From the NCBI GenBank assembly GCA_030390025.1, contig CM059431.1:142726001-142790000 (forward strand): a DNA stretch of 64,000 bases, given 5' to 3'. The stretch is from Squalus acanthias. Lineage: Eukaryota. The position numbers and the translations under genes were made by a program. Shown one piece after another: positions 6,341-61,369 of this stretch. Under the pieces are notes generated by a model. The model saw only the letters and a list, made by a program, of their open reading frames with translations. It had not been told where the DNA came from and made no database searches. Numbering within the stretch: the stretch's first letter is position 1; each line of letters starts with the position of its first letter.

Positions 6341-6399
6341 TATGCTATAATATTTATTTCAGCGTGCCCATGACTTACCCTTGAACCTCTTTCTTACAG

Positions 6400-7331
6400 C
6401 GAACTTATTGACAATGGTGATTCTCTCCAGAGGAAAATGCGGCCTTTCCAAATGTACCTCGATCTACATGGGGGCCATGGCAACAGCAGATCTACTGGTC
6501 ATGATCTTCAATGTAATCCTATATCACATTTTGAGTAAACACTTCCCATATTCATTTCTGTCCTACACTGCCGTTTTTAAGTTCATGATATATATGTGTA
6601 GTGTCAGCCTATATATGTCGGTGTGGTTTACAGTCTCCTTCACATTTGATCGATTTGTAGCTATATGTTGTCAGAAGTTTAAAACAAAGTATTGCACAAT
6701 GAGAACTGCGGCCGCGGTTATAACAACGGTCTCTGTCCTCGTTTATTTAGAGAACATCCCCTTTTGGTTTGCATATGAACACGAACAAATAATCAACAAT
6801 GTTCCCTGGGGGTTCCGCCCCAGCGCGGCCTTTTTTTCATCGCCTGCGGGTGTAGCATACTCCCAGTTAGAAGATATTTTAATTACATATCTTCCTTTTG
6901 GTTTGATATTACTGTTTAATTGTTTGACAGTCAGACGTATTTTAGTGGCCAGTGGAGCCCGCAGGGGACTCCGGAGTCACAGCAGTGAGAATCAGAGCGA
7001 TCCAGAGATGGAGAACCGAAGGAAATCCATAATTTTACTGTTCATTGTATCGGCCAGTTTTATATTGTTGTGGCTGACATCTGCCGTGAGTTCTATAGTT
7101 AACAACCTGGCCGTGCATCACCGACTCGATTATACATCTCCTGCATACATCGCCACTGAAACCGGATATCTGCTCATGTATTTGAGCTCCTGTACAAACA
7201 CGTGTATTTATGCAGCTGCACAAACTAAATTCAGAGAAGAGTTGAAGAAGGTGGTGAAATCTCCTTGGACATTTATTCTGATATTGGTTAAAAAAAAGAA
7301 TAATCAAACTAAAGCTTCCTGTCCAAACTAG
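6400..7331 (+). CDS. GPR139/GPR142-like class A GPCR, exon 2 (spliced product ~333 aa)
   Basis: CTCTTTCTTACAG acceptor and an open frame with hydrophobic TM segments; MATADLL (TM2), FTFDRFVAIC (DRY-like), LPFGLILLFN (TM5) and NTCIY (NPxxY-like). The family assignment is from motif recall, not a search. Confidence 0.88.
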
Positions 7332-13790: not shown

Positions 13791-16700
13791 TTGAGGCATT
13801 GGGACCAGTTTTGTGGTAGGTGTGACCTATACAAAAGGGACGGTCTACACCTGTGCAAAGATGGAACTGAGGTTCTCGGGGTAAATTTTGATAAAGCAGT
13901 TCGGGAGCATTTAAACTAGTATGGCAGGGGGCTAGAAACCCATGTAGTGAAATAGAGGAAAGTGAAAGGCAGACAGAAATAAATGGTAAAAAGGAGAGGA
14001 ACAAAAAACAAAGGGCCAAACTAATTCATAAAAAATGTGAGCATAAAAAAAGCCTGAGGGTTTTATACCTTAATGCGAGAAGCATCAGGAACAAGGTAGA
14101 TGAATTAGCTGTGGAAATAGAGGTTAATAATTATGATCTAATTGGGATTACGGAAACATGGTTGCAGGGTGAGCAGGGCTGGGAGCTTAACATACAGGGG
14201 TATTCAGTATTTAGGAAGGATCGACAAAAAAGAAAGGGAGGAGGGGTAGCATTGCTGGTAAAAGAGGGGATAAATGCAATTGAAAGGAAGGATATTAACT
14301 CAGTTAATACAGAATCTATATGGGTGGAGCTAAGAAATAGCGAGGGGCGAAAAACATTAATAGGAGTGGTATATAGGCCTCCAAATAGTAAAATAGAGGT
14401 TGGGGAGGGCATCACGAGGGAAATTAGAGAAGCGTGCAATAAGAGCACAGCTGTCATCATAGGTGACTTTAACTTACATATAGATTGGACTAGCCTAATC
14501 AGTAAAAATAATGAGGAGGAGGAATTCCTTGAGTGTTTAAGGGATGGTTATCTGGATCAATATGTCGAGGAACCAACTCGGGAACAGGCTATATTGGACT
14601 GGGTACTGTGCAATGAGAAGGGACTAATTAGTAATCTTGTTGTACGGGGACCCTTGGGTCAGAGCGATCATAACATGATCGATTTCTCACTCGAAATGGA
14701 AAGCGAAGAAATTGACTCAGAGACTCAGGTCCTGAATTTAAACAAGGGGAATTATGATGCCATTAGACGGGAACTGAGTAGGTCTGATTGGACAACGTTC
14801 CTGGGAGGACTGAAGGTAGATAAACAATGGCAAGCATTTAAAGATAGAATGACAAAATTGCAAAAATTGTTTATACCAATCTGGCATAAAAGGAAATCTA
14901 AAAAGGTGACTCAACCGTGGATAACAGGGGAAATTAGAGACAGCATAAAATCCAAAGATAGGGCGTATAAAATAGCCAAAAAACGCGCCAGAGCGGAAGA
15001 TTGGGAACAGTTTAAGATAGAGCAAAGGAGGGCAAAGGGCTTAATCAAGAAGGGCAAAATAGCTTACGAAAGCAAGCTGGCGGAAAATATAAAAACTAAC
15101 TCCAAAAGCTTTTATAAGTATATCAAGAGGAAAAGACTGGTGAAAACCAAAGTTGGTCCATTGCAGTCAGATACGGGGGAATATATAATGGGAAATAAGG
15201 AAATGGCAGACCAACTAAATGCATACTTTGGGTCAGTCTTTACGAAGGAAGACACAAAAAACCTCCCTGGGATATCGGGAAAAATAGGGACATTGGCAAA
15301 GGAGGAACTGACGCAAATCAATATCTCTAAGGATATGGTGTTAAGGAAGCTAAAGGGATTGAAGGCGGACAAATCCCCAGGGCCTGATAACATGCATCCT
15401 AGGGTACTGAAGGAGGTGGCCCTAGAGATAGCGGATGCACTAAGCATGATTTTTCAGAATTCATTAGACTCGGGAACAGTGCCCATGGATTGGAGGGTAG
15501 CTAACGTTACCCCACTATTCAAAAAGGGGGGTAGGGAAAAAGCAGGTAATTACAGACCTGTAAGCCTTACATCAGTTGTGGGCAAAATGCTGGAGTCCAT
15601 CATTAAGGATGAAATAGCCGAGCACTTAGCAAATGGGGACAGGATAGGACAGAGTCAACATGGATTTACAAAGGGTAAATCGTGCTTGACTAATCTATTG
15701 GAATTTTTTGAGGGAGTAACTGGTAAAATAGATGGCGGAGAGCCAGTAGATGTGGTGTACCTGGACTTCCAAAAGGCCTTCGATAAGGTCCCACATAAAA
15801 GATTAGCATGGAAAATTGAAGCTCATGGGATAAAGGGGAAAGTATTGACGTGGATAGAGAACTGGCTGTCAGATAGAAAACAGAGAGTTGGAATAAACGG
15901 CTCATTTTCTGAATGGCAGGCAGTAACAAGTGGGGTACCACAGGGATCTGTCCTGGGTCCCCAGCTGTTCACAATTTATATTAATGACCTGGATCAGGGA
16001 GTCGAATGCAGCATTTCCAAATTTGCAGACGACACTAAACTAGGAGGGGGGGTGGGCTCAGAGGAGGAGACCAGGAAGCTCCAGAGCGATTTGGACAGAC
16101 TGGGTGATTGGGCGGATAAATGGCAGATGCACTATAATGTGGACAAGTGCGAAGTTATCCACCTTGGGTGCAGGAACGGGAGGGCAAATTATTATTTAAA
16201 TGGCAATAAATTGGGAGAGGGGGAAGTACAGAGAGACCTGGGTGTTCTTGTACACCAGTCACTGAAGGCGAGCATGCAGGTGCAACAGGCGGTCAAGAAG
16301 GCAAACGGTATGCTGACCTTCATAGCAAAAGGGTTGGAATACAGGAACAGGGATACCTTGCTGCAGCTGTACAGGGCACTGGTGAGACCACACCTCGAGT
16401 ACTGTGTACAGTTTTGGTCGCCTCATCTGAGGAAAGATGTTCTTGCCATGGAGGGGGTGCAGCGGCGATTCACCAGGCTGATACCAGGAATGGCGGGATT
16501 GACCTATGAGGAGAGACTATGTAGTTTAGGGATGTACACACTGGAGTTTAGAAGATTGAGAGGGGACCTCATAGAAGTGTATAAAATTCTGACAGGTCTA
16601 GACAGATTAGATGCAGAAGGAATGTTTCCCTTGGCGGGTGAGAACAGAACTAGAGGACATAATTTAAGGATAAGGGCTAAACCATTTAGGACAGAAATGA

Positions 16701-16961
16701 GGGGGAATTTCTTCACTCAGAGAGTGGTGAACCTGTGGAACTCATTGCCACAGAGGGCAGTGTACGCCAGCTCATTAAATATATTTAAGAGGGAATTAGA
16801 TATATTTCTACAGGCAAAAGGGGTTAAGGGTTACGGAGAGAAGGCGGGGACGGGATACTGAATTGAAGGATCAGCCATGATCTCATTAAATGGCGGAGCA
16901 GGCTCGAAGGGCCGGATGGCCTACTCCTGCTCCTATCTTCTATGTATCTATGTATCTATGT
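13791..16961 (+). mobile_element. Young CR1 LINE, 5'-truncated within ORF1, with uninterrupted ORF2
   Basis: ORF1 C-terminus LRHWDQFCGRCDLYKRDGLHL...REHLN* (13791-13919), then ORF2 and a (CTATGTAT)n tail. Possible ATCA target duplication. Confidence 0.97.
13910..16861 (+). CDS. CR1 ORF2: APE endonuclease + reverse transcriptase (frame open from 13895)
   Basis: YLNARSIRNK, ITETWL, VYRPP, GDFN and SDH (APE); KSPGPD, NYRPVSL, DFQKAFD, GVPQGS and FADD (RT). No stops or frameshifts. Confidence 0.93.
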   Translation, partial: FKLVWQGARNPCSEIEESERQTEINGKKERNKKQRAKLIHKKCEHKKSLRVLYLNARSIRNKVDELAVEIEVNNYDLIGITETWLQGEQGWELNIQGYSVFRKDRQKRKGGGVALLVKEGINAIERKDINSVNTESIWVELRNSEGRKTLIGVVYRPPNSKIEVGEGITREIREACNKSTAVIIGDFNLHIDWTSLISKNNEEEEFLECLRDGYLDQYVEEPTREQAILDWVLCNEKGLISNLVVRGPLGQSDHNMIDFSLEMESEEIDSETQVLNLNKGNYDAIRRELSRSDWTTFLGGLKVDKQWQAFKDRMTKLQKLFIPIWHKRKSKKVTQPWITGEIRDSIKSKDRAYKIAKKRARAEDWEQFKIEQRRAKGLIKKGKIAYESKLAENIKTNSKSFYKYIKRKRLVKTKVGPLQSDTGEYIMGNKEMADQLNAYFGSVFTKEDTKNLPGISGKIGTLAKEELTQINISKDMVLRKLKGLKADKSPGPDNMHPRVLKEVALEIADALSMIFQNSLDSGTVPMDWRVANVTPLFKKGGREKAGNYRPVSLTSVVGKMLESIIKDEIAEHLANGDRIGQSQHGFTKGKSCLTNLLEFFEGVTGKIDGGEPVDVVYLDFQKAFDKVPHKRLAWKIEAHGIKGKVLTWIENWLSDRKQRVGINGSFSEWQAVTSGVPQGSVLGPQLFTIYINDLDQGVECSISKFADDTKLGGGVGSEEETRKLQSDLDRLGDWADKWQMHYNVDKCEVIHLGCRNGRANYYLNGNKLGEGEVQRDLGVLVHQSLKASMQVQQAVKKANGMLTFIAKGLEYRNRDTLLQLYRALVRPHLEYCVQFWSPHLRKDVLAMEGVQRRFTRLIPGMAGLTYEERLCSLGMYTLEFRRLRGDLIEVYKILTGLDRLDAEGMFPLAGENRTRGHNLRIRAKPFRTEMRGNFFTQRVVNLWNSLPQRAVYASSLNIFKRELDIFLQAKGVKGYGEKAGTGY

Positions 16962-16964
16962 ATC

Positions 16965-18395: not shown

Positions 18396-19992
18396 TTCCC
18401 AGCACGGTGTTAGAGTTTGAAAATGACACGCCGGGAGTTGCTGGGTAGATTCAGTTTATTGCAGAATGACTGGAACCAAGTGAACTCAGAAAGTCCACCA
18501 GTGGGTGAAAGCCCTTTGCTCCGGGCTGTAAAAGCCAACATTCCCCTGTCGGAATCACTGGCCATGACGGGAGCGACCGGATTTGCTCAGAGTTACCGGG
18601 GATTAGTGAATTTGGCGAAGAGGGTCTGAGACCCATTGATCCTGGGGCTGAATTTCCATCAATCGACACTGGACCTCAAGGTCCCATTCAGCTGTGGACA
18701 GACTCCAAGAGCTGTGCGCATGGGCCGGGGATTTCTGGGACTATCGCTTTGTGTCCGGAATGGTCTGTCCGGAATGATTCCACTCTTTAATGAGCCGGGA
18801 AAGAATCATTCAGTACCTTGCACTCCCTCCATGGTCTGTGGGATCTACAGCCCGATCCTCTGTTGGGATCCAGTGCGTCGTCTCACGGGAGCATCACAAC
18901 CATCAAGGCCTTTCTCACAGTTTTACTCCTGAGCCCTCAGCCCCATGGGATTAACTCTATGAACAGTAAGTTCAGGAATCGAATCCTTTTTAATCAGTAG
19001 TATTTCTCTATTTGGAGTTCCAGCTCCTGCTCACTCCCCTAGTTTACCAGGAGTTCACTGATCAGGTGTCCCTTCATTTCTTTGCGATGGTTGTTATTTT
19101 CTCCATCCTGTGATCCCCTGGTCTGCAGCAGCGGTCGCGGTTTGTGGTTATAATGCTTTGTGTCTCAGCTGAATGTAATGTTTGAATTCATATCTTTCCA
19201 GTAATTGTTTGTAAATGATATTGAATACAGCTGACATCTGATGCCGCTCCCGAGATCCCCCTCGCCATTTAAACCGATGAGATTAAATGTAAAATTCCAT
19301 CGATTGCTCCCTGGGGCCGCTGTAGTAACTCATCAAATTGGCTCGGTGCATCACATGGTCCCAGCCTCATGGCGGGATGGTTTCAGCGCTCCACACTGCA
19401 ATGGAACATGTGTTTGTATGTATGTAAGGGAATCCGCTTCTTTATTGACTCTCGAATATGAACAAGTTACAGAACCAGCCAAGGTTTCGCTTTAAGTGTC
19501 TTTTATCTGTAACTGCACCGTCCCTGCGAGGTACTCCGGCTTGACCTGGACCGCACAGTTAGAGTGTGAATGGAGACTCAGTCTAGTGTCAGGGGCGATA
19601 GTGATTGAAATGACAATCGGGAGAGATGTATGACGGTCGGCTGATCAAATGTCGCCGGTTTTACATTATCTCACAAAGTTAATATCCTCCTATATCCTGC
19701 CTGGTTGTCTGTGGTGGTGGGGATCGCTCTCCGTGTCCATTCCAGATACTGAATCCGAGCGACCCTCCTCCCCGCGCCGCCTGGACAACATCTGACTGAA
19801 GTATACTGGAAGGATGGTCATTCTCAGTCCCTCTATAGTGAGTGTAGAATGATGCGTTTATTTTGAAGAACATGTCGACAACGCTCACCTATATTAAAAA
19901 TAATAGGAACACATCTCAACATTTCCCCACAATAAGCTGTGAGATTTATCTGAGTGTCCCCGTTACTGACCTTCTGCCCCTTTTTCTCACTG

Positions 19993-20890
19993 CGAACCTA
20001 CTGACAATGGTGATTCTCTCCAGAGGAACTGTCGGCCTTTCCAAGTGTATCTCTGTCAACATGTTGACCATGGCAACAGCAGATCTACTGTTCATGATCC
20101 TCAATGTATAGTGTATCACATGTGTACAAATCACTTTCCACATTCCTTCCTGTCGTACACTGCAGTTTGTATGAAAATTATTTACATCCATTCTGCCAGC
20201 TTGGATATGTCGGTGTGGTTTACAATCTTGTTCACATTTGAACGATTTCTAGCCTTATGTTGTCAGAGTTTGAAAACAAGTAATTGCAGAGTGAAAACTG
20301 CGGCTGTGCCCATAACAACGGTCTCTGTCCTGATCTATTTACAAAGCATTCCAGATTTGATTGCCTATAAACCTGATCGAATAATTAACAATATTCATTG
20401 GGGTTGTTACCCCGGATTGGACTATTTTTCATCGCCTGCAGGTGTCGGGTTCTCCCGGTTACAAGGTATTTTAACGATGTGGAGTCCATTTGTTTTGATA
20501 TTACTGTTTAATTGCTTGACAATCAGACGTATTTTGATGGCCTGTAGAGCTCGCAGGGTACTCCGGGGTCACAGCAGTGAGAATCAGAGCGATCCAGAGA
20601 TGGAGAACCGGAGCAAATCCATCATTTTACTGTGTATCGGGCAGTTTAATATTGTTTTCGCTGACATCTGCCGGAGGTTTTTTAACTGACAAATCCCGCT
20701 CATAAGCCACCCGATTATATCTCTAATGCACACATCGCCACAGCAAGTGGGCTTATGCTCATGTATTTGATTTCCCGTACAAACACGTGTATTTATGCAG
20801 CTACAGAAACTAAATTCAGGGAAGAGCTGAAGAAGATGGTGAAATCTCCTTGAGCATTTATTCTGATTTTGGTTAAATTAATGTAACATT
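19993..20890 (+). pseudogene. GPR139-like GPCR pseudogene (paralogue of exon 2 at 6400-7331)
   Basis: Colinear with 6400-7331. Acceptor CAG changed to CTG (CTCACTG|CGAAC), 1-nt deletion near 20108, a further frameshift near 20630, and TGG changed to TGA near 20851. No exon 1 found. Confidence 0.9.
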
Positions 20891-26460: not shown

Positions 26461-26769
26461 AATTTAAACAAACCCCCTCTCTGGAGGAAAAACCTCTCAG
26501 TCTTGATTCTCCTGTGTGTCATCAACTTCTTTCTTGTCTCTCAATCTTTTATTCTTCAGTTCCTCTGGTTTATAACAGGGATTGGTTGGTAAATGGAGTT
26601 GCTGAGAGATTGTCCGTATAACTGAGTGATAGAGACGGAGCCTGGACCTGTGCTAATTGTACTTTGTTTCACTCAATTTATTTTTGCCCTCTAGTGATGA
26701 TTATCGTTGAAAATTGCCACGAAATGATTTAGTGAATGAAAATTTAGGGAAGAGGAATATTGGACAAAA

Positions 26770-28240
26770 GCTTCCTCCAGAGGAGACAAACCGAGGCCTC
26801 CTCCAGAGGGGAACGACCGAGACCTTCACCAGAGGGGACTGACCGAGATCTTCTCCAGTGGGGAATGACCGAGACCTCCTCCAGAGGAGACTGACCGAGA
26901 CCTCCTCCAGAGGAGACTGACCGAGACCTCCTTCAGAGGGGAAAGACCGAGACCTCCTCCAGAGGAGACTGACCGAGACTTCCTCCAGAGGTGACTGACG
27001 GAGACCTCCTCCAGAGGCGACTGACCGAGACCTCCTCCAGAGGAGACTGACCGAGACCTCCTCCAGAGGAGACTGACCGAGACCTCCTCCAGAGGAGACT
27101 GACCGAGACCTTCCCCAGAGGAGACTGACCGAGACCTCCTCCAGAGGTGACTGACCGAGACCTCCTCCAGAGGCGACTGACCGAGACCTCCTCCAGAGGA
27201 GACTGACCGAGACCTCCTCCAGAGGAGACTGACCGAGACCTGCTCCAGAGGAGACTGACCGAGACCTCCTCCAGAGACTGACCGAGACCTCCTCCAGAGA
27301 CTGACCGAGACCTCCTCCAGAGGAGACTGACCGAGACCTCCTCCAGAAGCGACTGACCGAGACCTCCTCCAGAGGCGACTGACCGAGACCTCCTCCAGAG
27401 GCGACTGACCGAGACATCCTCCAGAGGCGACTGACCGAGACCTCCTCCAGAGACTGACCGAGACCTCCTCCAGAGGCGACTGACCGAGACCTCCTCCAGA
27501 GAAGACTGACCGAGACCTCCTCCAGAGACTGAACGAGACCTCCGCCAGAGGGGTCTGACCGAGACCTCCTCCAGAGGAGACTGATCGAGACCTCCTCCAG
27601 AGGAGACTGATCGAGATCTCCTCCAGAGGGGACTGACCGAGACCTCCTCCAGAGGAGACTGACCGAGACCTCCTCCAGAGACTGACCAAAACCTCCTCCA
27701 GAGACTGACCGAGACCTCCTCCAGAGGGGACTGACCGAGACCTCCTCCAGAGGGGACTGACCGAGACCTCCTCCAGAGGGGACTGAACGAGACCTCCTCC
27801 AGAGGGGACTGACCGAGACCTCCTCCAGAGGTGACTGACCGAGACCTCCTCTAGAGGGGACTGACCGAGACCTCCTCCAGAGGAGACTGACCGAGAGCTC
27901 CTCCAGAGGGGAAAGACCGAGACCTCCTCCAGAGGAGACTGACCGGGGCTTCCTTCAGAGGGGACTGACCGAGACCTCCTCCAGAGGGGACTGACCGAGA
28001 CCTCCTCCAGAGGGCACTGACCGAGGCCTCCTCCAGTGAGGACTTACCGAGACCTCCTCTAGAGGGGACTGACCGAGACCTCCTCCAGAGACTGACCGAG
28101 ACCTCCTCCAGAGGGGACTGACTGAGGCCTCCTCCAGAGGGGACTGACTGAGACCTCCTCTAGAGGGGACTGACCGAGACCTCCTCCAGAGGAGACTGAC
28201 CGGGGCTTCCTTCAGAGGGGATTGAACGAGGCCTCCTCCA
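26770..28240. repeat. Minisatellite, 26-bp unit GACTGACCGAGACCTCCTCCAGAGGA with 23-bp variants
   Basis: Directly visible period; it explains the repetitive minus-strand ORFs. Confidence 0.97.
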
Positions 28241-37884: not shown

Positions 37885-39621
37885 CTCAACACCCGGCATT
37901 TGTGCAGTACGGGTCCCAGCCGCTGGAGTCCGTCACACTGAACGGAGCAGTTCTCCAGATCAAGATGCTTTACTGTATCACAGAGTCCAGTGACATGAGA
38001 CAGGACCGCACAGTCAATCGGGGTCAGTCGCAATCCATTAAATGTAAGTGATTCCACAGATCCCACTGTTTTCCGAGCCAGTGCTTTATTCTGAGACTCA
38101 AACAGGTAGTGGAATGTGTTTAGGAGGTTCCTTTTACCAGTTTCACTCCCTGTGTTCCCAATCTGTGCTTCAATCTTCTCATCACCCAGTCAATCACTCG
38201 GCAGGTGGTTTGATGAAGAAATGGACCCAGAAACTCCTCCAGGGGCCGAGCTGCCTGTGGGGAGGAGAGACCAGCAACAAAACGGAGAAATATCTCAAAT
38301 CGCCCATCTTCCTCGCGGTGGGATTCTCTGAGGAGTTTCAGGATGTCCCCGGGATCTGGAGTCAGGAATTGTGCGAGTGCGGCTACAAACTCTTGGATGG
38401 TGAGGTGCGGGAATGTGTACACCACGCTCTGGGCAGATTCATCTCTCTCCAAAAGTTCCATCATGAACCCAGACAGGAACTGGGAAGGTTGCAGATTGTA
38501 CTTGATCAAATCTCCATTTCTAAACACAATCTTCTTCTCGGAGACTCCTGTGAAGGCCATCTCACCAAGCTTCAGTAACACATCACGGGGGCTTTCAATC
38601 TCTCGGCCATGGTTTTTCAGAATGTTGTAAATATAGTAGGAATATAGTTGGGTGATGGTCTTGGGAACTCGCTGCTGATTCCTGTCTCTTTGTGTGAAGA
38701 AGGGACCCAGTGACAAACCGAGGATCCAGCAGTAGGAAGGGTTGTAGCACATGGTGTACAGGATCTCGTTCTCCTCCACGTGTTTGAAAACAGCTGCTGC
38801 CACCGTCTGATCCTCAAAAAACTTGTTGAAATATTCCTTCCGTTTTTCACCAACAAATCCCAGGATTTCAGCCCAGACACTGATCTCAGCCTTTTCCAAT
38901 AAATGTAATGCAGTGGGGCGGCTGGTCACTAGCACTGAACATCCTGGGAGCAGCTTGTGCTGTATTAAACTGTACACAATGTCAGACACTTCACACCAGT
39001 CTTCGGGATCTGTGCACATGGACTGAGGTTCTGTATTTCTCCGATTGTCAGCAAAATCGATCCTGTCCTTGAATTCATCCAAACCATCGAATATAAACAA
39101 CAATCCCTCTGGGCTCTTCCAGAGCTCTCCCAGAACATTCCCAAAGTAAGGATACAGATCCAATATCAGATTCCTCAGGTTTATTCGACAGTTAATAGCA
39201 TTCAAATCCCGGAATTTAAAGCTGAAAATAAATTGAAAGTGTGGGTATATTTTCCCAGTGGCCCAGTCATGAACAATCTTTTGCACCATTGTTGTTTTTC
39301 CAATCCCCGGGACTCCGCTTACTGCTCCTGAACTCCCAGATTTGGATTTTCGCTGGGAAAAACTGCTCTGGAACAATTGATCAGTTCGGATTTTTTCCAG
39401 CTCTTTCCGGAGATGTTGCTCTCTCCACTCTTCATGGTCTCGGCCTCTTGCCAGCAGTTCATGTTCTACAAGTGTCCGATCTCGAACAGTAGAAATGACC
39501 GTTAGCTCAGCGTATCGATCAACCAGCTGAAAAATCTTAACCTTCTCCTTTATTAGGATAGTGTTCACTCTCAGTGTTTCAGTTTGTACCCGGAGTGTCT
39601 CCTTGTGTTTCTGTTGAACAT
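37885..39621 (-). CDS. NLR (NLRC3-like) NACHT exon; 1-nt frameshift near 38182, so possibly a pseudogene
   Basis: TAATTTAAG acceptor (DVQQKHKETLR...), Walker A GVPGIGKTT, Walker B LLFIFDGLDE, VLVTSRP and FPHLTIQEFVAA. After the frameshift it continues NLLNTFHYLFESQN...LTPIDCAVLSHV...LHKCRVL to a GTAAC donor. Confidence 0.92.
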
Positions 39622-39899
39622 CTTAAATTAGAACAGACAGAAAGATCAGACATAAAAAAAACTTCTCAATAACATTTCGCTATTCAGTAAAATGTTGCAA
39701 GGTTTAATTCACAGCTTCAATAGAGGCATGTGTTGAAATTAAAACTCAGTTAATGGAAACCTCGCTTGAAAGTGAACAATGGCCGAGAAAAGTTTCAAAT
39801 CCTCTCTTGATTCTAATATTCACTGAACATGCAGGTTTCAATGATATGACTTTTACCTCTGATGGTTAATACTTTCCGGCCTGCTCTTTTCTATTGACA

Positions 39900-42800
39900 T
39901 CTCCTCGCGGCTGGAAAAGAACTTTGAATGGGAGGGGGAGGATCCAGTTGTCGTGGTCCACGTAGGAACCAAAGATATAGGTATAACTAGGAAAGAGGTT
40001 CTACTGATGGAGCGTGAGAAGCTAGGATCCAAATTAAAAAACAGAACCTCAAAGGTAATAATCTCTGGATTGGTACCTGAGCCATGTGCAAATTGGCACA
40101 GGGACAAACAGGATAGAGGTTTAACTGAGTGGTTCAAAGAGTGGTGTGGGAGGAAGGGCTTTCAGCTAATGGGGCACTGGCACCAGTACTGAGGAAAGAG
40201 GGAGCTGTTCCTTTGGGACGGGCTCCATGGGGCTGGGACCAGTGCCCTGGCGAACCGAATAACTAGGGCAGTAGACAGGGCATTAAACTAATGAAGGGGT
40301 GGGGGTGGGAGACTCCAGGAAAGAGTAAATTTAAAAGCAGTGAGAGAAATGTCAAGGCTCTGGAGCCAAGTAGAGTTTTGGGTAAAAATAAGCAGAGTGC
40401 GTCAGGATGTGACAGAGACTAACAAAGGTAATAAGGCATCAGTGACTAAGGTGACATCAGGGAAAAATAGAAATAAGTCAAAGCTAAAGGCACTATATCT
40501 GAATGCGTGAAGCATTCACAACAAAATAGATGAATTAATACTGCAGACAGAAATTAACAGGTTAGATCTAATCGCCATAACGGAGACGTGGTTGTAAAGT
40601 GGCCAAGGTTGGGAACTAAATATTTCAGGATATTTAACTTTTAGAAGAGTTAAGCAAAATGGAAAAGGAGGAGGGTTAGCCCTGATAATGAAGGATGGGA
40701 TAAAGACAGTAGAGAGAAAGGATCTTACCTCTGAAAATCAAGAAGAAGTAGAGTCAGTTTGGGTGGAGCTAGGAAACAGCAAGGGGCTGAAAACATTGGT
40801 GGGAGTTGTGTATAGGCCCCCAAATAGTAGTTGTAACGTAGGGCAGAGTACAAAACAGGAAATTAAACGCACATGTAACAAGGGTAATAGAGTAATCATG
40901 GGGGACTTTAATCTACATATAGACTGAGCAAACCAAATTTGCAGTAATACTGTGGAGGACGAATTCACGGAATGTATGCAAGTTAAGTTTGTAGATCAGT
41001 ATGTTGAGGAACCAACTAGGGAACAGGCTATTTTAGATCTAGTATTGTGCAATAAGAAAGGATTAATTAATAATCTTGTAGTAAAGGGGCCTTTAGGGAA
41101 GAGTGACCATAATATGATAGAATTTTATGTTGACTTTAAAAGTGATTTAGTTAAATCTGAAACTAGGGTCTCAAATCTGAACAAAACAAACTAAGTAGTT
41201 ATGAGGGGCGAGTTGGCTGAGGTAGATTGGGAAACTACATTAAAAGGTATGACGGTAGACAAGCAATGGCTAGCATTTAAAGAATTAATACATAATTTAC
41301 AACAACTATACATTCCTTTAAGGCACAAAAACCCCACAGGAAAAGTGCTCCAACCGTGGCTAACAAGAGACATTAAAGATAGTATTAGATCAAAGGAAGA
41401 TGCTTATATTGTTGCCAAAAAGAGTAGTAAGCCTGAGGTTTGAGTGTATTTTAGAATTCAGCAAAGGAGGACCAGAAACTGATAACGAAAGGGAAAATAG
41501 AACACGAGAGTAAATTTGCGAGAGACATAAAAACAGACTGTAAAATCTGCTATAGTTCTGTAAAAAGGGAAAGATTTGTGAAAGTAAATGTGGGTCCTTT
41601 ACAGACTGAGACAGGAGAAATTATAATGGAGAATAAGGAAATGGCAGATAAATTAAACAAATAAATACTTTGTGTCTCTCTTCACGGAAGAAAAATGCAA
41701 AAAACTTCCTGGAAATAGTGGAGAACCAAGGGTCCAGCGAGAATGAAGAACTGAAAGAAATTAGTATTAGTAAAAAAAAAAGTACTGGATAAATTAATGG
41801 GACTGAAAGCTGATAAATCCCTTGGACCTGATGGCCTACATCCTAGGGTTTTGAAAGAGGTGGCTATAGAGATAGTGGATGCATTGGTTGTCATTTTCCA
41901 AAATTCCATCGATTCTAGAATGTTTCCCGCGGATTGGAAGGTAGCAAATGTAACCCCACTATTTAAGAAAGGAGGGAGAGAAAATGGGGAACTACAGACC
42001 GGTTAGCCTGACATCAGTCATAGGGAAAATGATAGAATCTATTATTAAGGAAGTGGTAACAGGGCACTTAGAAAATAATAATAGGATTGGGAGGATTTAT
42101 GAAAGGGAAATCGTGTTTGACGAATCTGTTAGCGTTTTTTGAGGTTGTAACTAGCAGAATAGATAAGGGGGAACCAGTGGATGTGGTGTATTTGGATTTT
42201 CAGAAGGCATTCGATAAGGTGCCACACAAGAGGTTATTAAACAAAATTAGGACTCATGGGATTGTGGGGTAATATACTAGCATGGATTGAGGATTGGTTA
42301 ACGGACAGAGAAGAGAGTCGGAATAAACGGGTAATTTTCTGGTTGGCAGGCTGTAACTAGTGGGGTATTGCAAGGATTAGGGCTTGGGCTTCAGCTATTC
42401 ACAATCTATTTCAATGATTTGGATGAGGGAACCAAATGTAATATATCTAAGTTTGCTGATGATTCAATGCTGGGTGGGAATGTAAGTTGTGAGAAGGTTG
42501 CAAGAAGGCTTCAAGGGGATATAGACAGGCTAAGTGCGTGGGCAAGAACATGGCACATGGAATATAATGTGTAGAAATGTGAATTTGTCCACTTTGGTAG
42601 GAAAAATAGAAAAGCAGAATTTTTTTTAAATGGCGAGATTAGGAAATGTTGGTGTTCAGAGGGGCCTGGATGTCCTTGTACACGAATCACAAATTTAACA
42701 TGCAGGTACAGCAAGTAATTAGGAACGCAAATGGCATGTTGGCCTTTATTACAAGAGGATTTGAGTACAAGAGTAAAGACATCTTACTGCAGTTATATAG

Positions 42801-47785: not shown

Positions 47786-47863
47786 ATTTAATCAACTTTG
47801 AAAAACTTCGCACTCAAACTTTTTGGACGAACTCGGAGCTAAGGATCCAGGGAATCACCCATC

Positions 47864-50800
47864 ATGGAAAACATCCATAAACCATCGCGTCTTGACTTGG
47901 ACCCAAACACCCCAGCAGCCGGTAAGGTGTGGAAACACTGGTATCGCACGTTTGACAATTTTCTCGAATATTGCAAGGCTGATGATGACTCAAAATTGCG
48001 GATACTCATTAACTGTGTCACCCCGAATGTATTTCAGTATGTCGAGGAATGGGGCAGTTACGAGGAGGCAATTCGGACGCTTAAAAGACTATATACTAAG
48101 ACACCGAATGAGGTCTATGCCAGACATCTACTAGCTAAAGCCCAACAAGGGCCGGAGGAATCCATTGATAAATTCCTCCAAGAGCTTCGCAGACTTAGTA
48201 TGGACTGTAACTTTCAGGCGGCCTCAGCTGAGCTGTACCGTGAAGAAATGATCCGTGATGCTTTCATCTGCGGGCTTGCCTCCCCATTTATACGCCAGCG
48301 TCTACTGGAAAGTAAGACACTTGAGCTTCAGACAGCTTATGACATGGCTTGCTCTCTAGATCTGGCAAAAAGAAATGCAGACCTTTATACAGTGCCCAGA
48401 CCTCGGTCTGCTGCCTTAACTACAGTCAGGCAATTTAAGAGGCCACAGGTGAACTCTATTAGGGAGGACTTTATCCCTGACGATCAATCTGATGACTTCA
48501 CTGATGAAGAGGATGATGACCCCACTGTGGCAGCCTCTTGGCAATCTAAGAAATGCTTCTTTTGTGGTGATGAGTTTCACCCTCGGAAATTCTGCCCTGC
48601 TCGCAATGCGTTTTGCAGTCATTGCAACAAAAAGGATCATTTTGCAAAGGTTTGCCTATCAAGAGCCTCTACGAGGGCTTATCAAGCTAAGTCCTACCGA
48701 ACTGCCCCGGTAAGGGCCTATCAAGATGTTCCGGCTAAAATCTATCGTGCTTCCTCTCGGGTTTTCTCTCGAAGAAACACACCTAGAGTTTCAGCCACTC
48801 TTTGTGCAACGACACCAATTACAGCTGCTTGTCCTCAGAACCTATTCCATGCAGCTACAAAAGCAACAATTAATGGACATACTTTAGATGCCTTAATTGA
48901 CTCAGGTAGCACTGATAGTTTCATTAGGGAACAGATTGTTGCAGAGTTAAAGCTACATGTTTTCCCATTGGACCAGGCAATTGCGATGGCTCAGTCATCA
49001 CTTAATACCAGAATTTCTGGCTTTTGTATGGTTGAAATAACACTTAATGGTGACAGGTATCCCTCCACCCGGCTTTCGGTGCTCAAGGACTTATGTAGTG
49101 ATCTTATCTTAGGGCTAGATTTTCAAAAGCAGCATAAGAAGCTCACCATTGAGTTTGGCGGATCCAAACCTGAACTCACTATTTCTAATATACGACCTCG
49201 ATTACCGTTCTGTGCATTGTCAGCAGCTTCACTGGATGAACCCTCACTGTTTACCAGTATCCCTCCTCGATGCAAACCGATTATAACAAAGTCACGACGT
49301 TTCAGTCAGGAAGACCAGTCTTTTATTGCGGCTGAGATTTCTCGGCTTTTAGCAGAGGATATCATCGAGCCTTGTTCGTCGCCATGGCGCGCCCAGGTCG
49401 TTATTGTTAAGAACCCTCTACAACCTCACAAGAAACGGCTGTGCATTGACTATTCACAGACCATCAATCAATATACGGACTTGGACGCATACCCATTGCC
49501 GCGCATCGATGATATGGTTAATAAACTGGCTGAGTACACGGTGTTCTCAACATATGATCTGAAAAGTGCCCATCATCAGGTACCCTTGAAGGTCTCAGAC
49601 AAGCAGTATACGGCCTTTGAAGCCAATGGACGGCTGTATCAATTTCGTCGCCTCCCCTTTGGGGTCACTAATGGAGTGGCTGTCTTCCAGCGAGCAATGG
49701 ATGACCTGGTCAAACAGGAAGACTTAAAGGATACGTTTCCTTATCTGGACAATATTACTGTCGCAGGTCGCAATCAGCGGGAACATGACGCCAATCTCCA
49801 ACGATTTTGGGATGCACTCCAGCACCGTAATTTGACATTAAATGCGGCTAAATCCATTGAGTCACAACCAACCATCAACATCCTTGGCTATTGTGTGGGC
49901 AATGGCATCATTAAACCTGACCCTGAAAGGCTTCGCCCACTCCAAGAACTCCCGCCACCTAAGAATCCGGCCTCCTTGCGCCGGGCCCTCTGCCTGTTTG
50001 CATAGTATGCTAAATGGATTCCTAACTTCTCGGACCGAATCCAACCTCTACTGAAGGCCAGCACATTCCCACTAGACACAGCGGCTGTTGCAGCCTTTAA
50101 CCTCCTGAAAAAACAGTTGGAGAAAGCGGCTCTTCACTCCATCGATGAGAGTCTTCCTTTTGTTGTTGAGTGTGATGCCTCGGAGGTGGCGATTTCGGCC
50201 ACTCTGAATCAGGAAGGTCGTTCGGTGGCATTTTTGTCCAGGACTTTTCAAGGGGCTGAGCTACATTATCCTCCAGTCGAGAAAGAAGCTACAGCCATCA
50301 TAGAGGCAGTACGGAAGTGGACTCATCTCCTAGCTCGCCAGCACTTTACCTTAATCACGGACCAGCGATCGGTCGCCTTCATGCTCGATAATCGAAAACG
50401 GACCAAAATTAAAAATAATAAAATCCAGCTTTGGCGGCTGGAATTGGCCTCTTTTGGTTACACCATCCACTATCGACCTGGCAAGGAGAATGTGGCTCCC
50501 GATACCCTCACACGAGCATTCTGCTCCGCCATGGCACCCTCTACGCTCGTAGACATCCATGATGGGTTGTGTCATCCGGGCGTTACTCGCATGCTACACT
50601 TCGTGCGGTCCCGAAATCTCCCATTCTCTACCGGGGATGTAAAGAAGATGTGCTCGGACTGCAGAGTCTGTGCGGAATTGAAACCTCAGTTTTTCCGCCC
50701 CTCGGGTGGTATACTCATACATGCGACCCAGCCAATGCAACGGCTTAGCATCGATTTTAAGGGGCCGTTGCCCTCTTCAACTCGCAACACTTATCGATTG

Positions 50801-51270
50801 ACCATGGTCGATGAGTATTCCCGTTTTCCGTTTGCCTTTCCCTGACCCAATATGCTGACGACCACGGTTATCAGCTGCCTTGAGCAGGTATTTGCTTTCT
50901 GTGGCATGGCATCCTATGTTCATTCGGATCGGGGCCCTTCTTTTATGTCAGGAGAACTCAAGGCCTATCTCTCGGAACGGGGTATTGCTGCCAGCAGAAC
51001 GACGCCTTATCATCCGGTCTGAATGGGCAAGTCGAGCGTTTTAACGCTATCATCTGGAATGCGGTACGTCTGGCTTTGAGATCTCGGGGCCGACCCAACC
51101 AGCAATGGAAAGCAGTACTTCCAGACGCATTACACTCCACACGGTCCCTCCTTTCGACCGCCACAAATACGATGCCTCATGAACGATTCTTCCGATTTCA
51201 GCGTCGCTCATCCTATGGGCTATCTCTCCCGTCGTGGCTGACTGCACCGGAACCAGTGCTACTCCGAAGA
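47864..51270 (+). pseudogene. Gypsy gag-pol polyprotein, disrupted by stops (TAG 50003-50005, TGA 50843-50845) and integrase deletions
   Basis: Knuckles CFFCGDEFHPRKFC and CSHCNKKDHFAKVC; protease LIDSGS; RT PFGVTN and YLDNI; RNase H VECDAS and TDQRS; integrase H..H..C..C, IDFKGP and VHSDRG. Confidence 0.93.
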
Positions 51271-51842
51271 TGAGGTTGAGCTCACTGATGTCAACCCTAC
51301 CTACGCCTATATTCGGTATCCTGACGGTCGGAAATCTACCGTGTCATTGCGGGATCTGGCTCCCTGCCCGCCGAAACATAGAGGGACACCAGGGGATGAT
51401 ATTGTACCAGGCACATCTCTGAGCTCGCCAGGTGCTTCTCATCACGATCTGGATCTGACGCCGGCTGGTACCTCACTCCAGCGTGCCGACCTGGGGCAGA
51501 CTGACTATGAGCCCGTCGGGGCTCGCACGCGCAGCCACGATCCACCCCGTACCATACGCTCGGAAACATATCTTCCACAGCCCTGCCCGACACCCGTTCG
51601 GGCACCAGTACACAGTCAGGATCGTCCTGACCCCTCACAGAGCGGGCTGGATCACTCGGACTCTGGTCCACGGCCCGCGGCAGGTAAACGGGCTAGGGGC
51701 CCTCTACCGCTACGAGAACCCAAACGGGTGCGGCTCTCCCTCGTCCAGCGGCTACGAAATGGAGGGAGAATGTGGTAACACAATACAGCTTCCTGTGACT
51801 CGAACTTCATCCCGGCCTCCTAATCTTTTGGGGGGGGGAGAA

Positions 51843-54527: not shown

Positions 54528-55733
54528 TAGGAAGGTATTGCAGGAGTCCCCTGGGTCCATCTCCCTCTCCAACAGATTTTCCGTTTTGGATACTGCTGGG
54601 GAGATGGTTTCTCAGGGGAATGCAGCAAGAGCCAAGTCCGTGGCACTACGAGTGGCTCAGCTGCACAGGAGGGGAGGAAAAAGAGTGGGAGAGCAATAGT
54701 GATAGGGGATTCTATCGTAAGGGGAACAGATAGACGTTTCTGTGGCCGCAGACGTGACTCCAGGATGGTATGTTGCCTCCCTGGTGCCAGGGTCAAGGAT
54801 GTCACTGAGCGGCTACAGGACATTCTGAAGGGGAGGGTGAACAGCCAAAGGTCGTGGTCCATATCGGTACCAACGACATAGGTAGAAAGAGAGACGAGGT
54901 CCTGCAAGCAGTATATAGGGAGCTAGGAAATAAATTAAAAAGCAGGACTCAAAGGTAGTAATCACAGGATTACTCTCAGTGCCACGTGCTAGCGAGAGCA
55001 GAAACAGGAGAATAGACCAGATGAATGCGTGGCTGGAGAGATGGTGTAGAAGGGAGGGATTTAACTTCCTGATGCATTGGGACAGATTCTGGGGAAGGTG
55101 GGACCTGTACAAGCTGGACGGATTACACCTCGGCAGAACCAGGACCAATATCCTCGCAGGGTGTTTGCTGGTGCTGTTGGGAAGTTTTTAAACTAGTTTG
55201 TCAGGTGGCTGGGAACCTAAGTGTGGGCCCAGAACGGAGAGAAACAAAGCTGGAAGTGCAAGTTAGAAAAGTAGTCAGCAAAACTAGTAGGGAGCAGAAA
55301 CAAAGGCCAACAGTAAAGGGGGTCAAAGTGCAGAAAAATATTAAACAAGCAACGTTGAAGGCACTTTATCTAAATGCATGTAGCATTCGCAACAAGGTGG
55401 ATGAATTAATGGAACTAATGGTAGTAAATGGGTATGATGTAATTGCCATTACAGAGACATGGTTGCAGGGTAACCAAAGCTGGGAACTGAATGTTCCAGG
55501 GTACTCAACATTTAGGAAGGACAGACAAAAAGGAAAAGGAGGTGGCAAAACACTGTTAATAAGGGATGAGATCGGTACGGTAGAGATAAAAGATCTTGGC
55601 TCGGCAGACCGTGATGTAGAACTGGAATCAGTTTGGGTGGAGCTAAGAAAGAGCAAAGGGTGGAAAACATTGGTGGGAGCTGTGTATAGGCCACCAAACA
55701 GTAGTGGTAATGTAGGGCACAGTATCAATCAAG
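54528..55733 (+). mobile_element. CR1 copy A, right part (ORF1 esterase + start of ORF2 endonuclease)
   Basis: RKVLQESPGSISLSNRF, VIGDSIVRG, DGLHL, then KALYLNACSIRNK...VYRPPNS. Truncated where CR1 copy C begins. Confidence 0.9.
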
Positions 55734-58700
55734 AGGCCAAACCTCGGGAGATTTCTAAGGTGAGCGAGAGCGGCTGGAGGGCGCCAAACCTCGGGAGATT
55801 TCAAAGGTGAGCGAGTGCGGCTGGAGGGCGCCAAACCTCGGGAGATTTCAAAGGTGAGCCGGGGCTACAACGGACCGGTGAATGTAAAGAAGTAAAAAGT
55901 AATCGAAGTGTGACATCATCAGAAAGCAGGTAAGTGACTGGCTGGTGAGTATTTCTCGCTTTCTCGCTTTTTTCCTAACAATTTTTGTGGTTTATAGTTT
56001 CTAAGTTCTCTGTTGTGTGGCAGGGAGTGCTAATAAACAAGGGCCCTTAAGTATATCATTTAATTGTAGTGTAATTGGTGGTAGTGATTTGGTTTAATTT
56101 AATTTGAATTAAAGGGTAAGTCATGGCAGCACAGCTCGGCCCCGTGGCATGCACCTCCTGCACTATGTGGGAAATCAGGGACACTTCCTGTGTCCCCGAC
56201 GACCATGTGTGCGGGAAGTGTATCCAGCTGCAGCTACTGGCAGACCGCATTGTGGCGCGGGAGCTGCGAATGGATACATACTGGAGCATTCGCGATGCTG
56301 AGGACATTGTGGATAGCATGTTTAGGGAGTTGGTCACACCGCAGGTAAAGGCTGCACAGGCAGGAAGGGAATGGGTTACCGCCAGGCAGAGTAGTAGGCA
56401 CAGGCAGGTAGTGCAGGGATCCCCTGTGGCCATCCCCCTCTCAAACAGATATACCGCTTTGGATATTGTTGGGGGAGATGGCTTATTGGGGGAAGGCAGC
56501 AGTAGCCAACTTCCTGGCACCATGGGTGGTTCTGCTGCACAGGACGGGAGGAAAAAGAGCGGGAGAGCTATAGTGATAGGGGATTCTATTGTAAGGGGAA
56601 CAGATAGGCGTTTCTGCGGCCGCAAACGAGACTCCAGGATGGTATGTTGCTTCCCTGGTGCAAGGGTCAAGGATGTCTCGGAACGGCTTTCTGGAGGGGG
56701 AGGGTGAACAGCCAGCTGTCGTGGTGCATATAGGTATCAACGATACAGGTAAAGAACGGGATGAGGTCCTAAAGCTGAATATAGGGTGTTCGGAGGTAAA
56801 TTAAAAATAGGACCTCATAGGTAGTCATCTCAGGATTGCTACCAGTGCCACGTGCTAGTCAGAGTAGAAATAGAAGGATATTTCCGATCAATACGTGGCT
56901 AGAGGAATGGTGCAAGGGGGAGGGATTCAAATTCCTGGGACATTGGAACCGGTTCTGGGGGAGGTGGGACCAGTACAAACTGGACGGCTTGCACCTGGGC
57001 AGGGCCGGGACCTATGTCCTAGGGGGAGTGTTTGCGAGTGCTGTTGGGGAGGGTTTAAACTAAAATGACATGGGGGTTGGAAACCTGTGCAGGCAGACAG
57101 AGGGAAGGGAAGCAAGGATAGAAGCAAAAGACAGGAAGGATCAAATCAATAGTGGAAGGCAGAGAAATCAAGGGTGTAAATGAAACAGGGCCACAGTAAA
57201 TAATAATTCTAAAAGGACGAACAGTGCTAAAAAAACAAGCTTGAAGGCTTTGTGTCTTAATGCGAGGAGCATTCGTAATAAGGTGGATGAATTAGCTACA
57301 CAAATAGATGTAAACGGATGATATAATTGGGATTACGGAGACATGGCTCCAGGGTGGCCAAAGCTGGGAATTCAACATCCAGGGGTATTCAATATTCAGG
57401 AAGCACAGGCAAAAAGGAAAAGGAGGAGGGGTAGCATTGCTGGTTAAAGAGGAGATTTACACAATAGTAAGGAAGGATATTAGCTCTGATGATGTGGAAT
57501 CTGTATGGGTAGAGCTGAGGAATACCAAGGGGCAGAAAACTTTAGTGGGAGTTGTATACAGACCCCCAAACAGTAATGCTGAGGTTGGGGAAGGCATTTA
57601 ACGGGAAATTAGAGACGCGTGCAATAAGGGCACAGCAGTTATCATGGTTGACTTTAATCTACATATAGATTGTGCTAACCAAATTAGTAACAATACTGTG
57701 GAAGAGGAATTCCTAGACTGTATACGGGATGGTTTCCTGGACCAATATGTCGAGGAACCAACCAGAGATCAGGCCATCTTAGACTGGGTATTATGTAATG
57801 AGAAAGGATTGATTAGCAATCTTGTTGTGCGAGGCCCCTTGGGGAGGAGCGATCATAATATGATCGAATTCTTCATTAAGATGGAGAGTGAAGTAGTTGA
57901 CTCAGAGACTAGGGTCCTGAATTTAAGTAAAGGAAACTGCGATGGTATGATGCACAAGTTGGCTAGGATGGATTGGGGAACATAGCTTAAAGGGTTGACG
58001 GTGGATAGGCAATGGCAAACATTTAAAGATCGCATGGATGAACTACAGAATTTGTTCATCCCTGTCTGGCATAAAAATAAAACAAAAAAGGTGGCGCAAC
58101 CGTGGCTAACAAGGGAAATTAGGGATAGCATAAGATCCAAGGAGAGGACATATAAATTGGCCAGAAAAAGCAGAAAACTTGAGGATTGGAAGCAGTTTAG
58201 CATTCAGCAAAGGAGGACAAATGGATTAATTAAGAGGGGGAAAATAGAGTATGAGAGTAAGCTTTCATGGAACATAAAACCTGACTGTAAAAGCTTCTAT
58301 AGATATGTGAAGAGAAAAAGATTGGTGAAGTCAAGCGTAGGTCCCTTGCAGTCAGAATCAGGGGAATTTATAATGGGGAACAAAGAAATAGCTGACCAAT
58401 TAAATACATACTTTGGTTCTGTCTTCACAAAGGAGGACACAAATAACCTCCCAGAGATGTCGGGGAACATCGGGTCTAATGAGAGCGAGGAACTGAATGA
58501 AATCACTATTTGCAGGGAACTGGTGTTAGGGAAATTGACGGGATTGAAGGCCGATAAATCCCCAGGGCCTGATAATCTACATTGTAGGGTACTTAAGGAA
58601 GTGGCCCTAGAAATAGTAGAGGCATTGCTGATCATCTTCCAAAATTCTATAGACCCTGGCACAGTTCCCATGGATTGGAGGGTAGCTAATGTAACCCGAC

Positions 58701-60134: not shown

Positions 60135-61369
60135 TGCAGAAGTTCCACCGTTCGTGTGTCAGGTCCAGGGCAGGTTATCTGGGGTAATGTGTGCACTGGG
60201 AGAGGGACAGACTGTGAATGTACATAACTTCCACTGTTACTGTATCAGACCGTGGACAGTTTATATGGTGTCCTGTGTTCACTGGGCGAGGGACATTCTG
60301 TGAAAAGAGAGAAGTTACACCGCTAGGTTGTCAGGTCCTGTGTGTCTTTCTAATCATCTAATCACAGGAAGAATGCTATTGCAATGGTGAAGGTGCAGAG
60401 AAATACAAGATGATTATGGCACAATTAATGCGGTGTTAGATCAGTTTCACTTGAAATAAGACATTGGATATTGAATTATTGATCTGAATTTCGAACGGAA
60501 TTCACATAATTAATGCCGAAATGAGAAAAATAATGATCACAATTAATTATGAGACGCCAGGAGTAAGAAGGGAAATCAGGGTAATCGTTTTCACCAAAGT
60601 GTAATAGAGTGGGAGATCAGTTACCAGGGAGGACACTATGGGGCAGTGTAATTGGGAACAAGAGACAATTGGTTGTGTTTCTGTGGATAGACTGAGAGGA
60701 GGGGCAGGTGGGTTCATCTCTAACAGGGACAGACTTGTTTGGACCAAAGTGGCCTTTTGTTCCCCTAAATATCCTCCTGTTGTGATTCAAAAACTGAACA
60801 GTTTTCAGTAATTTTACACTTATATTATTTTTATGTAAGTCTCATCTGATAACCGATCAGAATCAGAAATAGAACTATCGCCCACTCCACTCAGTATTAT
60901 GTCAGGGAAGAAAAGATTGAGAGTTCATTTCAACAGTTACGATCATTAAATTCCATCGTTTCATTTGGATACGAGTTTCCTACAATGTAGTTTTGAAAAT
61001 TACGCATATGTTTCTGATAATCAGTAAATTGGGAATCAAAATCCTCCTGAATGAAAGGGGGCTTCTTCAGTACAACAAGCCCCTCTGTGCCTAGTTTGAA
61101 TGATTCACTGCCAGTGGGAATCGGTCCAATCAGTTTCTAATCACGCATAACATGTCCTTTATCACATGTTCCTCCTCGGTTAATGTTTGATTGAGTGAAC
61201 GTCTGTACATCTTCTCAGATTGGATTGAACACGATCGGATATTTCATGACATGATGTACAACGGTGATACTTAACGGTTTCCCATTTCTCGGCCACTATT
61301 CCGACAGTTTATGCTGGAATAGAAGCGCCAGTAGCACAGTAACTTCCACATCAGGCTCAAGGTCCTGTG

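Follow-up and report, generated by a model that had tools for sequence, protein, structure and literature searches.

The window, a 64,000-nucleotide stretch of the genome of the dogfish Squalus acanthias (GCA_030390025.1, contig CM059431.1), carries on its forward strand a copy of a CR1-type LINE that is 5'-truncated at about 13791, and because of this truncation only the last 42 codons of ORF1, belonging to an SGNH-esterase domain and ending REHLN-stop, are present (13791..13919). These codons finish as GAG CAT TTA AAC TAG, where the heptamer TTTAAAC (13910-13916; U_UUA_AAC in the ORF1 register) is abutted on its 3' side by the stop codon (13917-13919), which is TAG here and TAA or TGA in other lineages. 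The initial annotation had described this as an X_XXY_YYZ site at the ORF1 end, with which the sequence agrees exactly, and had proposed that ORF2 continues unbroken in the -1 frame. This frame is indeed open from 13895 to 16861 (988 aa), where the ORF2 stop ends, and encodes a basic, AUG-free linker of 52 codons (13910..14065), an APE-type endonuclease starting YLNARS (14066..14671; PF03372, residues 55-254 counted from TTT) and a reverse transcriptase domain (15530..16162; PF00078, residues 541-751), with PF14529 also matched beside these two. Within the linker the -1 frame holds no stop codons, while frame 0 holds five and the +1 frame nine. The first ATG of the -1 frame, expected to be late, lies at 14675 (codon 256 from TTT), past the whole PF03372 match, and all 14 ATGs between the ORF1 stop and this position are out of the -1 frame. 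That at 13921, likewise annotated as out of frame, opens a +1 mini-ORF with the product MAGG-stop (13921..13935), which is missing in most other lineages. A run of five Gs (13927..13931), at a position shared across families, starts 11 nt past the heptamer and is a candidate stimulator or protein-binding site. The element ends in a 3' UTR with a tail of short (CTATGTAT)n repeats (16862..16964), which we take to resemble the tail of shark HER1/HE1.

TTTAAAC occurs 20 times in the 64-kb window, so a lone heptamer is weak evidence and its weight comes from position and conservation; likewise, TTTAAACTAG with at most one mismatch was found eight times in the window against 4.6 expected, a number reached in 12 of 100 shuffles and therefore not significant. 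The heptamer also stands where ORF1 ends in two further CR1 lineages, a second one, represented by an old copy, in which it is followed by TAG (55187..55196, plus strand), and a third, in which it is followed by TAA (57054..57063, plus strand). Other features of the window include two related, intronless GPCR-like open frames (6351-7331, plus strand; 19970-20689, minus strand), a stop-broken gag-pol of a Ty3/gypsy-like LTR retrotransposon (47843-51778, plus strand) and long tandem-repeat arrays that give rise to spurious open frames (26700-28050 and 61250-64000).

In a genome search with a 334-bp stretch, all 40 scored matches were 100% identical, and a pattern in which the heptamer was masked as N recovered at least 1,939 flank-matched copies in the 3.7-Gb genome; TTTAAAC was present in 100/100 copies among the matches listed of these at least 1,939. 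Judged by these sequences, the window copy is a member of a very young CR1-type LINE family, and since the family is young and has so many flank-matched copies, the AUG-less ORF2 is the form of the spreading source element and not a product of decay. Assignment to the CR1 clade agrees with the Pfam matches (an APE endonuclease and reverse transcriptase in ORF2, an SGNH esterase in ORF1) and with 5'-truncated copies that carry a 3' short-repeat tail instead of poly(A), an organisation also seen in canonical vertebrate CR1 (PMC13343379, PMC3905857). Sharks and rays supply the nearest named homologues, and by eye the junction region is closely like the CR1-labelled rows in the supplement of PMC13343379, where published consensus sequences have a junction identical to that of the window family. 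The annotation had further assigned a zinc finger and an esterase to ORF1; the window holds too little of ORF1 to bear this out, but in longer copies of the family (L001, L019) ORF1 is 315 aa long, has a Cys-rich N-terminus and contains an SGNH esterase that matches PF13472. In the 5' UTRs of CR1 copies there are GTAAG(T) motifs that strongly resemble splice donors, together with an AG-bearing pyrimidine tract (L019:485-506 and 599-607; window 55925-55950); similar motifs occur in dogfish and catshark consensus rows of the PMC13343379 supplement, and they may represent an intron in the 5' UTR or sites that bind U1.

Across the dogfish genome, junctions were anchored on the upstream esterase motif and, after removal of one duplicate row, TTTAAAC plus a stop was found at 153/163, where 61 of these rows are window copies or were retrieved with heptamer-containing DNA queries and the remaining junction sets came from protein queries or were chosen for long open frames. 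At the other 10 junctions the changes are scattered, each confined to a single copy. As a synonymous control we compared the last 169 ORF1 codons in one natural copy from each of seven lineages, which share 47-92% amino acid identity and differ at 17-58% of four-fold sites. Among 12 invariant Leu columns, only the terminal one uses a single codon (TTA, which accounts for 17/105 Leu codons elsewhere), and the terminal Asn is the only one of three invariant Asn columns with one-codon usage. The codon preceding Leu-Asn is CAT, GGT or GCT, in every case with T as its last base, and the stop after Leu-Asn is TAG or TAA. Free synonymous variation of the Leu-Asn codons, named in the annotation as an outcome that would count against a frameshift site, was therefore absent between lineages, whereas other Leu and Asn codons do vary. 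Single-codon usage was also found in 9/57 other invariant degenerate columns, which makes the dogfish genome alone moderate evidence.

Homologous proteins extend this pattern. A Leu-Asn C-terminus was found in 38/116, alligator proteins among them, and most of those with other ends are truncated, mis-spliced predictions or teleost L2-type ORF1s. The residue before Leu-Asn is one whose codons cannot end in T in just 1/38 homologues, as against 21/38 and 10/38 at the two preceding positions and 2/38 at the next. The last two residues, L314 and N315, do not vary in 33 aligned ORF1 proteins, a set chosen among proteins ending in this way. For birds and turtles the coverage consists at most of proteins ending A-L-N (P0114/P0115), presumably of the bird type. 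Many of the teleost L2-type proteins (P0052-P0092) end in Thr-stop instead of Leu-Asn-stop, which, from the proteins, would fit an AUGA stop-start overlap, and one shark-type CR1 ORF1 (P0012) is deposited as a Pseudomonas aeruginosa SGNH hydrolase, probably because the assembly in question contains host DNA. When metagenome and viral contigs were scanned with alignment A1, 61 and 64 pattern matches, respectively, turned up, none of them a confirmed relative.

Cross-species DNA was examined by eye in the first 400 characters of each row of Supplementary Table 2 of PMC13343379, where TTTAAAC plus a stop occurs 23 times. Eighteen of these occurrences read as ORF1/ORF2 junctions and five lie elsewhere; the junctions come from 12 species (alligator, saltwater crocodile, bearded dragon, bullfrog, coelacanth, bowfin, halosaur, elephant shark, stingray, sawfish, catshark and dogfish). 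Using an anchor at the endonuclease start that is independent of the heptamer, 6/7 junction-reaching CR1 rows of the supplement contain it, and the seventh, the low-quality gecko consensus EubMac_CR1-1, is one A short at this site. Six alternative heptamer spellings gave no junction match among the supplement matches listed (9/16 places for one spelling). AldAff_Crack-2 in the same table is labelled Crack and has a CR1-type esterase end with a TTTAAAC-TAG junction, and the TTTAAAC-stop site may help to classify elements of this kind. Taken with the synonymous control, these comparisons of sequence show that the heptamer is conserved at the nucleotide level, beyond what the protein needs.

The linker between the heptamer and the endonuclease varies from 45 to 72 codons and is dissimilar between lineages, yet keeps the -1 phase. 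It is open in this frame in 31/31, 19/28, 24/26 and 38/48 copies of four large families, the first being the window family, and in fewer copies of older families, and in 8/9 copies examined, several of them picked as open, it is free of stops in -1, while the two other frames have 2-12 each. Upstream of TTT the -1 frame is closed 5 codons away in the window family and 1 codon away in 10/12 copies of FAM5; with this frame closed just 5' of TTT and free of ATG, its Phe-Lys is not translatable from upstream, and ribosomes must pass into ORF2 close to the ORF1 stop, either through a slip or through a restart. A conserved in-frame AUG ahead of the endonuclease, a further observation that the annotation had said would speak against frameshifting, was not found as a general feature, and none of the 31 window-family copies has one overlapping or near the ORF1 stop, but three other lineages do possess an in-frame AUG between stop and endonuclease. 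One of these has an in-frame UAAUG in 22/23 parsed copies (of 25), as do the consensus rows ScyCan_CR1-1a and SquAca_CR1-17a/6c in the PMC13343379 supplement; in FAM6 the AUG is codon 8, and in a FAM3 subfamily it is at codon 39 or 44 in 17/18 open copies.

The UAAUG family is represented in the window by a junction at 40282..40293 (plus strand) in which the first heptamer position is A. We considered whether the heptamer had been lost in this lineage after it gained UAAUG and rejected this, as the 11 A-TTA-AAC copies have a common truncation point and flank and are therefore one segmentally duplicated insertion with an old mutation, and 12/12 independent insertions of the family retain TTTAAAC. 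This insertion (~39900-41900) and its flank are duplicated at 10 other places, six of them on one contig (C29), and adjoining it is a 500-aa open frame (38120-39622, minus strand) with a P-loop (GVPGIGKTT) and a NACHT/NLR-like look, a sequence arrangement that suggests an expanded immune gene cluster.

A standard -1 frameshift signal requires a 3' structure (PMC3542737), and the annotation had called the heptamer coronavirus-type. The heptamer and its register are identical to those of coronavirus ORF1a/1b (U_UUA_AAC), and the coronavirus layout, shared with retroviral and LTR-element gag-pol, also has a structural or RNA-binding ORF first and the polymerase downstream in the -1 frame; the likeness does not extend to the 3' side, where local folding, unlike in these systems, gave neither a pseudoknot nor a conserved stem-loop. 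Over 45-100 nt, z-scores were between -1.2 and +1.5 in 8/9 copies and only L060 reached -2.9, and no stem-loop or pseudoknot was found 5-9 nt downstream in these nine copies, with pseudoknots and long-range pairing lying outside a purely local model. We therefore do not class the junction as a canonical two-part signal. A two-tier G-quadruplex was predicted in just 3/9 copies. Position was more constant than structure at the G-run, which starts at +11 after the heptamer in 31/31, 27/28, 26/26 and 45/48 copies of four families and at +9 in two more, and is visible in most, not all, of the supplement rows. In arteriviruses, frameshifting is stimulated by a protein that acts at a C-rich motif, which follows the slip site at a distance of about 10 nt. 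The CR1 junction similarly has a short low-complexity motif at fixed spacing in place of a structure, but one that is G-rich, and reading by a protein is a candidate explanation only. CR1 differs further from the viral systems in that its zero-frame stop comes at once and in being a non-LTR retrotransposon.

Termination-reinitiation, in which ribosomes stop at the ORF1 end and restart in -1 at or near it to make a separate ORF2 protein, is the established route for L1 and SART1 (PMC5972666, PMC3708506, PMC1965478), which like CR1 have a bicistronic LINE RNA and scarce ORF2p. Such a restart could be AUG-independent, as in L1, or use UAAUG, as in SART1, with the heptamer as a cis-element or relic, and it accounts just as well for an open -1 linker. 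In L1 a 63-nt spacer and an AUG are found and in SART1 a UAAUG is required (PMC5972666); the window family has neither, and UAAUG is found in one CR1 lineage. The AUG of L1 ORF2 is replaceable by other sense codons, as cited second-hand in PMC1965478, and a missing AUG alone thus does not require frameshifting. Given this and the in-frame AUGs of the UAAUG lineage and two more, reinitiation stays alive, although we consider it unlikely: it leaves unexplained an X_XXY_YYZ heptamer fixed at synonymous sites and its retention in all 12 independent insertions of the very family that has UAAUG, the codon at the UAAUG position differs by lineage (ATG, GTA, AAA, ATT, ACT, GTT or AAT), and no near-cognate start codon has a common place across lineages. 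The fixed heptamer favours slip over restart, as it matches the X_XXY_YYZ definition of a -1 slip site (PMC3542737) and U_UUA_AAC is listed among the heptamers most shift-prone on mammalian ribosomes (PMC5009743).

An in-frame ORF1-ORF2 mRNA, or one for ORF2 alone, could also arise by splicing or by polymerase slippage at the junction, with no ribosomal recoding, which we regard as very improbable. There are three donor-like GT(A/G)AG sites in the 5' UTR and a CAG|G 10 nt past the heptamer in four shark lineages, but the 500-nt 5' UTR of the window family is ATG-free, and a search for spliced retrocopies found none, with two copies that differ just 5' of CAG|G, against at least 1,939 normal ones, being truncation-like and not joined to element sequence. 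Contigs from four sequencing runs, weak data since their RNA status is guessed, gave 0/6 joints with GT..AG ends or landing at the junction, and one (X1 record 4) spans it colinearly; a spliced start upstream of the endonuclease, which the annotation had listed against its own proposal, thus left no sign. Slippage of a polymerase would be in keeping with FAM3, in which the G-run that precedes the heptamer varies in length, so that the two frames are joined in 5/30 unselected copies (17/48 in a set enriched by picking), whereas the window family lacks a long run there and 31/31 copies are in register. Fused copies with an extra G 5' of the heptamer (L091-L102, L134, L142, L143, L152 and L157) are open for up to 1,290 aa. 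On the tree they are dispersed (15 changes, against a mean of 14.2 after shuffling), and a propagating in-frame fused subfamily was rejected in favour of independent events that form no clade; since they do not cluster, no constitutively fused lineage is seen. Least probable of all is that the heptamer is kept for another cause, either because ORF1p needs a C-terminal Leu-Asn or as an RNA site for packaging or for a binding protein, with ORF2 made by another route. The invariance of L314 and N315 would fit this, in a set of proteins chosen for that ending, but protein constraint would free the wobble T, TTA and AAC, all of which are fixed; furthermore, L2-type esterase ORF1s have different ends, and the AUG-less ORF2 would still need explaining.

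The junction combines a zero-frame X_XXY_YYZ heptamer, a downstream -1 ORF that is open and has no start of its own, and conservation beyond protein need. We infer, with a probability of roughly 0.78, that this conserved U_UUA_AAC-stop site directs -1 programmed frameshifting to make a minor ORF1-ORF2 fusion of about 1,296 aa, and the gag-pol-style fusion originally suggested for this copy is accordingly supported by the sequence tests, the mechanism itself being probable. Most ribosomes would halt at UAG and release the 315-aa ORF1p, while in a few per cent or less tRNA-Leu would re-pair from UUA to UUU and tRNA-Asn from AAC to AAA, by tandem slippage or during the wait at the stop, and these ribosomes would continue as ...H-L-N/L-V-W-Q-G... 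into ORF2. Candidate stimulators are the stop just 3' of the heptamer and the G-run that begins at +9 to +11. Such a slip would set a high ORF1p:ORF2p ratio, and the fusion would let the polymerase join ORF1p multimers in the manner of Gag-Pol; as CR1 encodes no protease, it would stay whole unless cut by the host. More tentatively, and at somewhat less than even odds, all esterase-type CR1 of jawed vertebrates may have used an uncleaved ORF1-ORF2 fusion for more than 400 million years, made at a structure-free U_UUA_AAC-stop and stimulated by the stop together with a G-rich motif that lies ~10 nt further 3' and is recognised by a protein, perhaps ORF1p itself. On this broader reading a LINE would follow a gag-pol strategy, with a stimulator of a type not yet described.

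Drosophila HeT-A is the only non-LTR case of frameshifting in the relevant passages of a 2016 review (PMC5009743), and there, unlike in CR1, the shift is inside a gag-like gene of an element without a reverse transcriptase and does not join ORF1 to an endonuclease-reverse transcriptase. The main text of a 2026 survey (PMC13343379) does not discuss frameshifting, overlap, start codons or translation, and the mechanism of ORF2 expression is not given in the relevant passages of that paper or of PMC3905857. Our literature search found no paper linking CR1 to frameshifting, with the 1997 chicken and turtle CR1 papers outside its reach and novelty in print not established. These papers reportedly contain the first full-length elements, and an earlier suggestion of a frameshift may stand in either.

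In most vertebrates, CR1-group elements dominate among the retrotransposons (PMC13343379), and translation of LINE ORF2 has been described as unclear (PMC3708506). Because the family is young and offers about 1,900 near-identical junctions, the question is testable with one reporter construct. If the frameshift reading is true, it would be a further LINE solution beside the reinitiation of L1 and SART1 and 2A skipping, and would add a very widespread chromosomal -1 site without the usual RNA structure. The working CR1 enzyme would then bear ORF1p at its N-terminus, which would bear on how ORF2 starts are annotated, how intact copies are judged and how CR1 retrotransposition assays are built.
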